Shown piece after piece: positions 17,460-56,552 of a DNA stretch of 64,000 nt (position 1 is the first letter of the stretch; each line of letters starts with the position of its first letter). The stretch spans positions 65,844,001-65,908,000 of the forward strand of contig OX597819.1 of assembly GCA_951406725.2 (NCBI GenBank). The letters run 5' to 3'. The position numbers and the translations under genes are program-made. A model generated the notes under the pieces. The model did no database searches and was not told where the DNA came from. It worked only from the letters and a program-made list of their open reading frames with translations. This stretch comes from Octopus vulgaris. Lineage: Eukaryota.

Positions 17460-17666
17460 CCGGAGTAAACACATAAATGTGAAACAAGGTGGAAAAAAAG
17501 TACTCAAATACCAGTAGTAGAGTAATATGCTTTATTTAAAGCAGCAGAAAATTCAACAAAACCTGTTACTCTGAGTTTCCCGTTGCCGTTCATCGGACAG
17601 TTTTGAACGGCAACGGGAAACTCAGAGTAACAGGTTTTGTTGAATTTTCTGCTGCTTTAAATAAAG
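17460..17666 (-). mobile_element. Penelope-like terminal-repeat remnant with a perfect 63-bp foldback, between (TA)n tracts
   Basis: 17530-17592 is the exact reverse complement of 17604-17666 (11-nt loop); hammerhead-like motif on minus strand at 17563-17600. Confidence 0.65.
17563..17600 (-). ncRNA. Variant minimal type I hammerhead motif
   Basis: CTGT-CCGATGA-ACG GCAA CGG-GAAA-CTC A GAG-TA-ACAG; U4C core change and weak stem II. Confidence 0.5.
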
Positions 17667-18731
17667 TATATATATATATATATATATATATATATATATA
17701 TATATATATATAAGAGAGAGAGAGAGAGAGAGAGAGAGAGAGAGAGAGAGAGATGAAGACGGAGAAATAGATAACGAAAGAAATTAAGAAAGAAGATAAA
17801 ACAAACGATTTGGAATGAAAACAAAGTTTAAAACGAGGGAAAAAAACATTATGGAAAGAATTAAAGGAGTGAAAGAAGGACTGAAGGAAAGGGAAAGTAA
17901 TAGAAAGATGAAGAATCAGAAAAAGGAAAAGCAAACGATTTTTTTCTTTTTTTTTAATAGAAGAAAGAGCACAGGAGTGAACGAACAAATAAGAATGGAA
18001 AGAATATAGTAAAGAAAGTGAGAAGAAAGAAACGAAAAAAATAAAAATCGTTAAAAAATACGACTAAAAATATATAAATAAAGGAAATAGTAAGAAAAGA
18101 ATGAGATCGTAAAAGAAGAAATAGACAAGAAATGTTGAATTTGAAGATATTGTGAAAGGAAATTGCAGCATTTAACAAAAAGAAATTTTTAAGAATGTAA
18201 AGTAATTAGGAATAATGAAAAGTCTAATTCCTCTGCAGAACCATCAGCTTCACCATCCTACCACTACTACTTGAAAAAATTACTAAAATTTACTAAAGAA
18301 ATAAAGAAGTAATTTGAATTACAAAATAAGAGTAAGCCTTGAATGTTATTAACTCAAAAGATAGATAGGTAAGATGGCAAAGAAGTTCTAGTTTTCCATA
18401 CGTCAACTAAATTTATCTTTGTACATTTACTATGTGGTTCTTTCGTGACTTAGTTCGCGAAGTACAGCGAAAAACTATGCTACGTTGACGAAACTAAAAC
18501 ACTACTGAAACTCGTATGAATGTCGTCCGCCATATAAGTGGCAATCATTTTAGACATTCATATTTAAACACGCATGCACACATACACACATACATATATA
18601 CTGCACCAATAGATACTGGAGATAGCAGTCAATAACATACGACGCTATTGTATAGATTCACTGTATATATATACTGGCAAAAATCGTTAAAGTAAGAATA
18701 TTTAATAAATGTACAACCCAGATGTAAATAA

Positions 18732-18803
18732 TCTAGGACCTAGATTTCGAACTTGCTAAATTACGTTTGTTAACGTAAATTTGATTGGTTCTCATCAGCT
18801 AGA
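18732..18803 (-). ncRNA. Type I hammerhead ribozyme, canonical core
   Basis: TCTAG-CTGATGA-GAAC[..AAATTTACGTT/AACGTAATTT..]GTTC-GAAA-TCTAGG-TC-CTAGA: stems I and II pair, GUC cleavage triplet, near-palindromic stem III. Confidence 0.85.
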
Positions 18804-18966
18804 ATCACCTATAGAAAATTTCAAACGTCACTACATCAATGTCGGTATTACTCGACCGAACGCCTAGCCGTTAACAGACCGAGACAGGGAAAATGTTTCC
18901 AAAGAAAAAATTATTCAATAGTGCAATGCAGTAGTATTGCTTCCCAGAAGAACAAAGCACCATCAG

Positions 18967-19081
18967 GTTAGAGTATAAATATAGGATAGTGGTACAACAA
19001 TGCACCGATTTTTACTCTGTGTCTGTGTGTGTTTGTGTACAGGAAAATAAGTTTTTTTTCTCGCGAGTAGAATTATAAAGA
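18967..19081 (+). repeat. ~115-bp direct repeat, copy 1
   Basis: GTTAGAGTATAAATATAGGATAGTGGTAC...GAGTAGAATTATAAAGA recurs at 20255-20369. Confidence 0.85.
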
Positions 19082-19548
19082 GGAGAAAAATGCTGTAAAC
19101 GCAACTATTGAAAATTTGCTAAATGAAAATTTTTACTCAAAACATTGTAGACACAACTGAAGCTCTTTGGAAGTATATATCTAATTTTGTAAAGGGTGTC
19201 ATTGACCCCTTAGACATCGTACAGACAAGTAACAGGTCACAGACTAAGAGTTGCATCCCGAAAATGTAGAACGGGAATTTGACCTAGCAAGAGGTTATGC
19301 TACTATTTTTAGTTAGAATGTCGTCCTGAGATTTGATAACAAGAAATCTTCTCAAATCTGAAAATCTTTCCCTAGATTTATGCAGAATACAGGAGATTCA
19401 TTCGAATCCTGTTTATTATCCTATGATATTGTAAAACCAATTATCTTATATCGCTTATTTCTCTTCCTGTTCAGTTATAGCTAGGTTTCTTGTTTCAATA
19501 GCTTTAATAGTTTGCTAAGTGTTTATGAGGGATTCCCATAATATCCTA

Positions 19549-20230
19549 GGCTCAGGCCTGGCTGTGTGGTAAGAAGTTTGCTACCCAACCATATGTTTCC
19601 TGGTTCAGGTCCACTGCGTGGCGCCTTAGCCAAGTGTTTTCTACTATAGCCTCGGGCTGACCAAAGCCTTGTGAGGGGATTTGGTAGATAGAAGCTAAAT
19701 GCCCGTCATATATACATATACATACATATATATATACATACACATATATATACATATATATATATATATATATATATATATATATATATATATATATATA
19801 TATATATATAAATTAGTGTACATTTAAACACAAAAGAGGTGAGTCTTAACAGGTCACCTTACATACTAGAAGGAACAGTCAAAATGTGCAAACCACAGTT
19901 AAGAGCAATTTCGAAGTGAATGACAAATGAAAACATTTACCATGTTTTACAGCCGAGCCTTAGGTTTCGTACTTTCATTGGCAAATAAAAATAATTTGCA
20001 AGCCGAAGTTCTCATCCTTATATATATATATATATATATATATATATATATATGTGTGTGTGTGTGTGTGTATATATATATGTATATGTGTGTGTGAGTG
20101 TGTGTGTGTGTGTTTGTGTTTGTCCCCCACCATCGGTTGACAACCGATGTTGGTGTGTTTAAATCCCCGTAACTTAACGGTTCTACAAAAGAGTCGCAGT
20201 GAAACGACTGAAAGAAGTACAAGAATAAAA
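19549..20230 (+). mobile_element. SINE family B interrupted in its (TA)n by a ~210-bp insert (19811-20018)
   Basis: Head 19549-19710, (TA)n, unrelated insert, (TA)n/(TG)n, then family B 3' half TTTGTCCCCCACCATCGGTTGACAACCGATG. Confidence 0.85.
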
Positions 20231-20254
20231 GAGTTATTCTCTTTAGCATCCTTT

Positions 20255-54119: not shown

Positions 54120-54480
54120 CAGGCGTGGACATGGCTGTGTGGTTAAGAAACTCTCTTACAAACGCGTGGTTTGGGGTTTAGTCCTATCACGCGACAGATT
54201 GTGCTACTGTCTTTAGCTATAGCACCAGGTCAACCAACTTCTTGTGAATGATTTTGTTAGACAAAAATTGTTAGAAAGCCCGTGGCACGCACGTGTTTGT
54301 ATGTGTGTGTGAGACAGCACCACCACTTGAAAACCGTGTTCATTTGTTTACCTTCCTGTAGCTTACCGGCTGTGTCAAGGAGACTAGTAGAATAATCAAG
54401 AGACTTTAAGATACGTACTGGTGTCGATCTCAGAAGGCGGTGCTGAGGCATGGCCGCTGTCTAATGAATGAAATACGAAA
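54120..54480 (+). mobile_element. SINE family B, diverged
   Basis: GGCGTGGACATGGCTGTGTGGTTAAG head; tail GGCGGTGCTGAGGCATGGCCGC. Confidence 0.8.
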
Positions 54481-54588
54481 TAAGCATGCATTATAAGAGA
54501 GGTGTCATTAATGTGACCTACTAACTTCTTTTACTAATTTTGTTCTTTCTTTAAAAACAGAACGATTGCCTAACTTTTAATTATATAA

Positions 54589-54652
54589 GGTGCAGGAGTG
54601 GCTAAGTACAGGAGTGGCTAGGCGCAAGGGTAACTAGGCGCAAGAGTGGTTT
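54589..54652 (+). repeat. Four 16-bp tandem units resembling the SINE B 5' end
   Basis: GGTGCAGGAGTGGCTA AGTACAGGAGTGGCTA GGCGCAAGGGTAACTA GGCGCAAGAGTGGTTT. Confidence 0.75.
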
Positions 54653-54748
54653 ATATGGCTTATTGCTCTTCCTGTTCAGTTATAGCTAGTTTTCTTGCTT
54701 CAATAGTTTGCTAAGTGTTTATGAGAGATTCTCATAATATCCTAATCT

Positions 54749-55118
54749 CAGGCGTGGCTGTATCGTAAGAAGCTTCCTTCCCAACCACAAGGTTCCGGGT
54801 TCAGTCCCACTGCGTGGCACCTTGAACACGTATTTTCTACTATAGCCTCGGGCCCACCAAAGCCTTGTGAATGGATATGGTAGGCGGAAACTAAAAAAAG
54901 CCCGTCGTATATATATATGTATGTGTGTGTGTATCCCCACCAACATCGCATTACAAACGATGCTGGTGTGTTTACGTCCCCGTAATTAAGCGGGTCGGCA
55001 AAAGAGATCGATAGAATAAGTACTAGGCTTACAAAGAATAAGTCCTGGAGTCGATTTGATCGACTATAGGGAGTGCTCCAGCAAGGCCGCAGTCACATGA
55101 CTGAAACCAGTAAAAGAG
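54749..55118 (+). mobile_element. SINE family B, full-length
   Basis: GGTTCCGGGTTCAGTCCCACTGCGTGGCACCTTG, tail GTGCTCCAGCAAGGCCGCAGTCACATGACTGAAAC. Confidence 0.92.
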
Positions 55119-56409
55119 TAATACAAGACATTTTGAAACGCTTGCCTTTTGTAAGAAGAAAAGAAACATATTCTTTTATTGTCTTTGTATTGTTTGGGCT
55201 TTTTTAGTTTTTTTTTCTTTTTTTTCTTGTTTTAGTTTTTCTTTTCCTAAATTATATTTTTGATATTCCAACAAAAATGTCACTCCGTCTTAAATTGTCT
55301 CTTATGAAAGATATTTAAATCTTTTTCTAATACCAGATTTTCTTTCTCTTCCTCCTTTTCTGAAAGAACACGAAGATTTATATCCGCCATTAACGAATAA
55401 AAAATTATGTATAAAAAAAATTAAAAAAACAGCTAAAACGGAAAGATAAAAGATAAAACAAAATAGAGAAGAGAAAAAAAATAAGGGAAGAATGAAAACA
55501 GTATATATTTCGTATAACATAGTCACTCAGAATGGTTAAATCGATTGCAAAATATCTTCCACGCAAATCTGTAAGAGCTGAAGATGCCAGAGGCAGCCAA
55601 AGTAAGATCGGGAAACACTTGGTCACATGATTAATCTCATGACACGTAACAATAATTTTCGTGCAACCACTAGGCAGTATTTTAAGTTAAAACACGTTAA
55701 TTTTTTTTTTACCTTTTGTGGGAGGTGGGGGTTCTTCTTTCTTTTTCCAAGAAAGGATATTTTCAATGATGTTAGTGAGCTGAAGGGCAATTTAAATTGT
55801 CTAAGTATATATATATATATATATATATATATATATATATATATATATATATATATATATATATATATATATATATATATATATATGTATGTGTGTATGT
55901 ATGTATATGTGTATGTGTGTATGTATGTATATGTGTATGTGTGTATGTATGTATATGTATATGTGTGTGTATATGTATATGTGTGTATATATGTATATGT
56001 GTGTATGTATGTATATGTATATGTGTGTACGTATGTATATGTATATGTGCGTGTACGTATATATATATATATATATATATATATATAAGAATGAAATACT
56101 AAAAATGCGTGAAAGTACAGTAAAAAAGGATTTCGTTATTCCCACGAATATATACATACATACATACATACAACCCCTATTTATATATATATATATTCTT
56201 TTGCACATTTGTAGCATTTCATTCTTTCTATACATATTGTATAGAGTTAATATGTTTTATGGCAATATATGTGTATGTGTGTGTGTATGTGTGTCTGTGC
56301 GTCTGTACATATATATAAGCGTACATACATGCAAACACTCCTACACACACAGATAGATAGTTATGGACATAATTTTACATAACACACGCGCACACACACA
56401 CACACACAC

Positions 56410-56552
56410 ATTCTCTACATATTATTTTCTCTTTCTGTTGTTTCCCTTTTAACATTTTCTGTCGAAGTGCGTAAGCTTGAAACGTAAAAGACATTCCCAA
56501 TCTTCCTGAGCGTTAAACTAATACATTTGCTTGTTGCTTCTACACTTGTCTA
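56410..56552 (+). mobile_element. Family P hammerhead-bearing element
   Basis: TTTT-CTGTCGA-AGTGCGTAAGCTT-GAAACGTA-AAAG at 56455-56490, then TTCCTGAGCGTTAAACTAATACAT. Confidence 0.7.

Follow-up and report, generated by a model that had tools for sequence, protein, structure and literature searches.

Hammerhead-shaped motifs at Penelope-like element ends in the Octopus vulgaris genome and an abundant family with an A6U core

The window analyzed here, a stretch of 64,000 nucleotides (nt) of Octopus vulgaris DNA (assembly GCA_951406725.2, contig OX597819.1, positions 65,844,001 to 65,908,000), belongs to a genome of 2.80 Gb, has a GC content of 35%, and is rich in microsatellites. An initial annotation had proposed twelve hammerhead motifs, all of type I and from at least six unrelated families, mostly in short elements that lack open reading frames (ORFs) and abut (TA)n, and had derived them from Penelope-like elements (PLEs) or retrozymes. 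Direct inspection found a type I hammerhead-shaped motif at each of the 12 positions. On sequence comparison, we consider it about 90% probable that these motifs are hammerhead-shaped RNAs of PLE terminal repeats, left mostly by truncated insertions, and that the motif of the most abundant family, in which core residue A6 is fixed as U (A6U, or U6), is probably under continued selection as a slow or protein-assisted ribozyme.

The hammerhead motifs of the window

The motifs far exceed random expectation. A strict type I descriptor matched four sites in the window and two in total in 40 dinucleotide shuffles (0.05 per shuffle). A variant-aware descriptor, in which a palindromic stem III was obligatory and seven cores were tried, gave eight matches (five canonical, two U6, and one with C at core position 4 [C4]) against ≤0.02 per shuffle for each of these cores in 50 shuffles. 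Family profiles, partly trained on the window's own copies, found 13 matches in the window and none in its reversed sequence; the thirteenth, absent from the initial annotation, is a damaged hammerhead (G5A) at ∼62340 to 62389 in a plus-strand element of an eighth family (62247 to 62441).

Identified by the position of core residue C3, the twelve motifs form seven families: A (10156, 24441, and 42501), B (22520, 45267, and 56459), C (43560 and 44565), D (18798), E (45956), F (17596), and H (40043). Those at 17596, 18798, 43560, and 45956 lie on the minus strand. The families are not all unrelated, since the family H element is ∼74% identical to family B over 231 nt. The two family C motifs are the two arms of one insertion.

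Two of the insertions are folded back. The Hydra-type family C insertion (43446 to 44827) consists of a minus-strand arm (43446 to 44559), which is a 1.1-kb fragment of the 3′ untranslated region (UTR) with a hammerhead at 43482 to 43565, and an inverted, 5′-truncated plus-strand arm (44557 to 44827) with a hammerhead at 44560 to 44648; only the second arm bears a tail, of ∼140 nt. The Hydra-type family F insertion (17460 to 17667) carries its hammerhead (17562 to 17601; C4 subfamily, 2-bp stem II) on the minus arm, which is the one arm with a tail, of ∼65 nt; its inverted 5′-truncated partner spans 17604 to 17671, and both ends of the insertion lie in (TA)n. Also on the minus strand are about one copy of the 434-nt ORF-less family D unit (18618 to 19016; intact canonical hammerhead at 18732 to 18803) and a 3′ fragment of a family E PLE (45859 to 46777; intact canonical hammerhead at 45901 to 45961). 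Part of the population is therefore not short, as family C spans 1.4 kb and family E 0.9 kb.

The remaining elements are on the plus strand. Family A is represented at 9992 to 10249, with a tRNA-like head, (AAT)n/(AAC)n, a body, a minimal hammerhead (10151 to 10196) damaged by G5C, and a short tailless 3′ end; at 24257 to 24527, with a canonical core and a broken stem I (24436 to 24481); and at 42272 to 42595, with a hammerhead (42496 to 42541) carrying U4A and G16.2A. Family B occurs as a short, old 3′ fragment with a U6 core and partly damaged stems (22515 to 22552), as a 3′ fragment set in (TA)n with an undamaged U6 hammerhead at 45262 to 45299 (45227 to 45390), and as a U6 hammerhead with a damaged stem II (56454 to 56491). 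The short, B-related family H element (39951 to 40178) combines a canonical core with a damaged stem II (40038 to 40074).

Only four of the 12 motifs (18798, 43560, 44565, and 45956) thus join a canonical core to whole stems; two others have undamaged family-variant cores (45267, U6; 17596, C4), and six are damaged, with mismatched stems at 22520, 40043, and 56459. The core CUGANGA...GAAA...UH is present in six copies, two of them with damaged stems, and CUGANGA is absent from the three family B copies, the family F copy, and two damaged family A copies. Stems I and II and the palindromic stem III are whole in six window copies and in the family masters. Rfam gave no match in the window at gathering thresholds, and the best 150 of 619 matches by E value were microRNA and small nucleolar RNA models on repeats or hairpins.

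Coding elements behind the motifs

A GIY-YIG remnant upstream of one family B copy led to young elements with long ORFs. In seven of nine such loci fetched, a frame of 1,050 to 1,200 codons lies between two U6 hammerheads 4.45 to 4.57 kb apart. The ORF matches RVT_1 (E = 1e−7) and, weakly, GIY-YIG (E = 0.006), and it has a CX4CxxC linker and a CCHH-type endonuclease motif; by these motifs rather than by a tree, family B appears to be a Neptune/Nematis-type PLE. The four intact copies that were compared are 96.8 to 98.7% identical. Where the downstream repeat of intact copies meets genomic (TA)n, the upstream repeat has a short TA run, which suggests priming by microhomology. Among loci selected by the family B endonuclease, a hammerhead follows downstream in 28 of 30, with U6 in 28 of 28.

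Family C has open frames of 980 to 981 codons (stop to stop) in two of 12 fetched loci, and direct hammerhead pairs ∼4.66 kb apart in three of the 12. The window copy at 43446 to 44559 shares 98% identity with the 3′ UTR of an intact element, whose 980-codon frame lies between two such hammerheads. The protein unites reverse transcriptase (RT) and GIY-YIG in a single ORF with RWK, DKT, and CxCX5C motifs and without CCHH. Pfam and PDB sequence searches with it returned no match, and one of its 31 database homologs is named, an Octopus sinensis protein with 69% identity over 21% of the query. Long copies of family F (loci L145 and L146) retain a C-terminal piece (420 to 507 amino acids) of a Hydra-type ORF, and in family E an endonuclease remnant lies 0.85 to 1.1 kb upstream in three of 15 loci. 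The diagnostic linker and endonuclease motifs, rather than a tree, place families C and F provisionally in the Hydra clade. The link to GIY-YIG and RT ORFs proposed as a check of PLE derivation is thus found upstream of the hammerheads for four of the seven families (B, C, E, and F), with intact RT and GIY-YIG ORFs in B and C. Within the window itself, searches with the family C protein and with six PLE proteins found no PLE coding remnants.

Family F (window copy and L085 to L104) divides into two subfamilies, distinguished by core position 4 and the residue just ahead of G12, which vary together (U/A versus C/G), a linkage that holds in 99 of the first 100 matches listed; stem II has only 2 bp. 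The linkage could reflect a base pair and is not counted as covariation because it stems from a single subfamily split.

Intact family B and C elements share an organization, one RT and GIY-YIG ORF flanked by two direct repeats with the same hammerhead in each, and the window copies correspond to the 3′ ends of such elements, with inverted 5′-truncated partners, one-arm tails, and (TA)n targets. The protein of an anole PLE makes nicks in AT-rich DNA and begins reverse transcription at either of two internal sites, which leaves a one-sided tail, and the hammerhead of that element cuts only with the protein (PMC11167929). Cleavage by minimal PLE hammerheads is weak and requires a dimer (PMC4209133). 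By analogy, the octopus element protein would nick AT-rich DNA, and reverse transcription would start inside the RNA at either of two sites just past the hammerhead; because copying would start there, even short insertions would keep the motif, which would produce the high density. The palindromic stem III would permit pairing of two hammerheads in a tandem transcript and cleavage as a dimer. A solo minimal copy is not expected to self-cleave as a monomer; having no dimer partner, such copies would be mostly silent. In inverted pairs, the motif would be caught in an extended duplex, and most genomic copies may therefore be silent.

The A6U core of family B

The sequence CUGUNGA, which carries A6U, occurs in 15,730 of 16,332 exact family B matches (96%). 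Among the first 100 listed of the 602 matches without U6, counted by eye, ∼71 have C (a transition), 19 have A, and 10 have G. The U6 core is not a product of decay after insertion, because all 28 endonuclease-linked hammerheads and both repeats of intact elements have it. A tree of families B, G, and H was built from 99 of 121 unique copies, 22 near-identical young copies being left out; U6 occupies the whole family B branch (59 of 60 copies), and C4 occupies a young part of the sister branch. That sister, family G (loci L160, L181, L196, L220, L239, and others), contains a young subfamily with a C4 core. The C4 residue sits in a CpG, and some copies that look canonical may therefore be deaminated C4 copies.

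Parsimony on 60 family B copies placed 181 changes on internal branches for the 132 flank columns, compared with one for the 13 core columns, one for the 16 stem columns, six for N7, and three for H17. Compared with changes on terminal branches, internal changes were depleted in core plus stems relative to flanks (Fisher test, P = 5e−6) and in the core alone (P = 0.004). H17 is never G among 57 ungapped copies, and the outer stem I pair, C-G in family B, is for the most part G-C in the family H relatives. Such conservation along the master lineage is what selection on hammerhead function would be expected to give.

Several observations weigh against this reading. The copies used for parsimony were found via the motif (12 loci by its exact pattern), which lowers motif variation; terminal changes, too, are fewer in the core (2.3 versus 4.2 per column); and the flanks hold homopolymer runs, which are poorly aligned. 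Conservation of this kind could also be the mark of a binding role. In Mg2+, cleavage by a natural A6C variant is poor (PMC3088659 and PMC7151607), and A6U might be worse; hammerhead mutants insert normally in one reconstituted PLE (PMC11167929), and cutting may therefore not be the selected trait. In minimum free energy folds of isolated copies, stem II forms and the complete hammerhead does not, with z ≤ −2 in two of seven. A point against the PLE derivation more broadly is that no autonomous or coding partner of family A, D, or H was found among the fetched loci, in a search far from exhaustive.

The most serious alternative, although we hold it to be the less probable one, accepts the elements as PLE ends and takes the U6 and C4 motifs to be catalytically dead and kept only because their fold serves the element protein as a binding or positioning signal. 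Such a signal would fit the strong loss of activity that accompanies changes at position 6 (PMC3088659 and PMC7151607) and the dispensability of cleavage for insertion in vitro (PMC11167929), as well as the rise of two separate weakening changes, U6 and C4, to more than ten thousand copies each in sister lineages. It fits less well with the master lineage, whose changes fall only at catalytically free positions (N7, H17, and loop II) and in which H17 avoids G, or with the low activity that natural C6 and C4 hammerheads retain (PMC3088659). As cleavage by natural A6C is slow in Mg2+ and good in Mn2+ (PMC3088659 and PMC7151607), the U6 form is plausibly weakened rather than dead. We therefore lean slightly toward a U6 hammerhead that still cleaves in the master elements, at a reduced or cofactor-dependent rate. 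More tentatively, and at a little under even odds, U6, the commonest hammerhead here, is predicted to be a working ribozyme whose activity is tuned down or gated by a cofactor and which selection maintains in an active element of Neptune type.

Noncoding families, genome-wide abundance, and known systems

For families A and D, the PLE derivation extends to PLE-type ends only, and no ORF was found. Family A has a fixed 5′ end at a tRNA-like head, followed by (AAT)n, a body, the hammerhead, and an optional tail of ∼35 nt. The head contains what we take to be A-box- and B-box-like motifs, and the head with (AAT)n has 1,634 exact matches genome-wide; ARAGORN found no tRNA gene and Rfam no tRNA match in the head, ARAGORN at a relaxed score being uninformative as it calls many chance tRNAs. 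Twelve of 34 units stand head to head in pairs, the 3′ ends are concentrated at two sites ∼35 nt apart, and target-site duplications of ≥8 nt flank only six of the 34 units, compared with 3% of random sites. These features suggest a tRNA-like-headed short interspersed element (SINE) with PLE-type ends. Family D consists of an ORF-less unit of 434 nt, found in partial tandems that wrap the unit, with ends clustered at unit positions ∼41 and 107 to 116 and with an inverted 5′-truncated partner or one-sided tail in some loci; in 15 loci there was neither a PLE protein match beside the hammerhead nor a long array. Both A and D are likely nonautonomous passengers of PLE enzymes.

Family D is the only family to which the retrozyme label can be extended. 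That most of the motifs are retrozymes lacking long terminal repeats (non-LTR retrozymes), i.e., ORF-less tandem repeats spread via circular RNAs, is improbable: the family D unit resembles one, but the window copies are solo or inverted and never tandem, and such an origin is refuted for B, C, E, and F by the PLE coding sequence into which they run upstream. Retention of the motifs by the host as regulatory self-cleaving elements is less probable again. The four canonical, whole copies would suit such a use, but half of the 12 copies are damaged, terminal-branch changes strike the family B core (30 in 13 columns), and family B copies that have lost U6 mostly have C6, as under neutral decay; strand counts are even genome-wide, although this is uninformative about genes.

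Exact patterns matched 1,630 (family A), 16,332 (family B), and 4,875 (family F) sites genome-wide, with no control match for any. Loose core patterns with an ACGU stem III matched 22,729 canonical (control, 2,563), 27,024 U6 (control, 1,979), and 13,236 C4 (control, 2,498) sites, i.e., ∼20,000, ∼25,000, and ∼11,000 above control, and U6 thus outnumbers the canonical core for the same stem III. A structural scan of a genome sample of 120 evenly spaced 10-kb pieces (1.2 Mb) found 29 canonical, 15 U6, and 15 C4 motifs, one G6, and no C6, A4, or G4. Although about 1 in 10 loose-pattern matches comes from an unrelated SINE or from chance, an origin of the motifs as chance matches in AT-rich, repeat-rich DNA is refuted by five shuffles of the sample, which held no canonical, U6, or C4 motif, and by the thousands of exact copies per family, and we give it next to no weight.

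Scaled to the genome, the structural scan corresponds to ∼140,000 motifs, of which ∼68,000 are canonical. The sample holds 117 copies recognized by family profiles, which corresponds to ∼270,000 genome-wide (bootstrap, 219,000 to 331,000), or about one recognizable copy per 10 kb, a rough figure because the profiles were trained on matches from the same sequences. The annotation had made its expectation of very many motifs depend on the window's density being typical; abundance is indeed high, but the window, with 13 copies against an expected 6.2 per 64 kb (bootstrap P = 0.02), has about twice the typical density. The reading of U6 as a working gated ribozyme, to which we give slightly less than even odds, sets it in a genome whose structurally whole hammerhead copies would number of the order of 100,000. 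The association with (TA)n holds overall: 77 of the 117 copies in the sample have (TA)5 no more than 200 nt downstream, compared with 16% of random sites. It is present in 42 of 50 copies of B, G, and H and in all six of F and fails for family A (none of 15 copies in the sample or of three in the window). At least 20 more hammerhead families occur in the sampled loci (L149 to L268 and others), most of them met once; in nearly all, stem III is palindromic and 4 to 11 nt long.

The window contains other repeats. Pfam searches with 90 of its 176 ORFs, those of higher complexity, gave only a zf-RVT piece of a long interspersed element (LINE), and no host gene was placed. LINE-like fragments lie at 58339 to 59364 (minus strand), which has the zf-RVT match, and at 61629 to 62344; ORFs at 15624 to 16064 (minus), 48176 to 49045 (plus), and 56641 to 57036 (minus) resemble, by eye and without a Pfam match, C-terminal pieces of LINE RTs. 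Two tandem 180-nt copies of an abundant SINE-like repeat, a type that is a source of false matches for loose hammerhead patterns, occupy 24983 to 25307. A short repeat with CTGACGA and no hammerhead fold has three copies at 682 (plus), 3927 (minus), and 8584 (plus). Another repeat, absent from the initial annotation, at 34408 to 34471 (plus) and 23904 to 23968 (minus; G12A), has GAAA upstream of CUGAUGA and complementary segments that are unlike between copies, and each copy has three relatives in the 1.2-Mb sample; its order of parts would fit a rewired (non-circularly permuted) hammerhead.

The mass occurrence of minimal hammerheads at PLE ends in animal genomes has been published (Cervera and de la Peña 2014, PMC4209133), and the density found here is a large yet expected instance of that pattern. 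The pseudo-LTR hammerheads of metazoan PLEs described there are likewise of type I, with a palindromic or missing stem III and an extra base after A9, and they likewise form many unrelated families per genome, mostly as solo copies of truncated PLEs and in close inverted pairs. Their numbers, ∼2,000 to 9,000 per genome with a CUGANGA descriptor, are smaller than the ∼20,000 canonical, 25,000 U6, and 11,000 C4 motifs that exceed control here with the ACGU stem alone, and their core variant is U3-A8 rather than U6 or C4; passages of one supplement contain neither an octopus entry nor a U6 core. Family B shares the CX4CxxC linker and CCHH-type endonuclease of Neptune and Nematis, and family C fits the definition of the Hydra clade, with RWK, DKT, and CxCX5C and no CCHH (Craig et al. 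2021, PMC8557442). Inverted 5′-truncated copies, one-sided tails, and (TA)n targets are common to the octopus elements and endonuclease-bearing PLEs, but the family C unit is 4.7 kb (ORF of ∼950 amino acids with Asn-rich inserts) compared with <3 kb for Hydra, and the tails are ∼65 to 140 nt compared with 30 to 40 nt (PMC8557442). The supplement of that paper lists octopus Hydra and Naiad PLEs, including Hydra-1_Obim of Octopus bimaculoides.

In the core variants A6C (phage Bcep176) and U4C (a viroid), position 6 or 4 is also changed with the remaining core kept (PMC3088659 and PMC7151607), but these are rare single cases with C6 rather than U6, whereas U6 here is fixed in a young, spreading lineage with >15,000 exact copies. 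Family A resembles the Sm-α and Sj-α repeats of Schistosoma (RNA polymerase III promoter plus hammerhead; PMC6765202) in joining a tRNA-like head to a hammerhead; unlike them, it is dispersed and has a minimal PLE-type hammerhead, inverted partners, and a two-site 3′ end. Family D, like metazoan non-LTR retrozymes (PMC7229834 and bioRxiv 10.64898/2026.07.22.740005), is short and ORF-less, with a type I hammerhead and partial tandems, but none of 15 family D loci has a long array; the preprint derives short retrozyme units from PLE terminal repeats.

A literature search found no description of a U6 core, an octopus hammerhead census, or a tRNA SINE driven by PLEs; outside that search lay Lunse et al., Repbase, and a 1994 octopus SINE paper, any of which may list family B or A. 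Lunse et al. (RNA Biol) reportedly describe ∼150,000 PLE-linked hammerhead variants. The association of hammerheads with PLEs and their mass density are thus known, and the apparently new element is A6U fixed in a young autonomous lineage.

Cleavage by PLE hammerheads is weak in vitro (PMC4209133) and dispensable for insertion in one reconstituted system (PMC11167929), and the reason why PLEs keep hammerheads is a question that family B could address directly. The family is young and retains intact ORFs, its sister lineages differ in the core (A6, U6, or C4), and its signature of selection exempts only catalytically free positions. Together with the parallel C4 lineage and the tRNA-headed SINE that rides on PLEs, the U6 core could amount to a natural experiment on the purpose of PLE hammerheads, a view that we put forward with some reserve. 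If U6 does not cut, the fold has a noncatalytic role in retrotransposition. If it does, genome scans rely on a hammerhead consensus that is too restrictive, and animal hammerheads are undercounted: CUGANGA descriptors would overlook more than half of the motifs here with the ACGU stem, and Rfam, too, misses U6.

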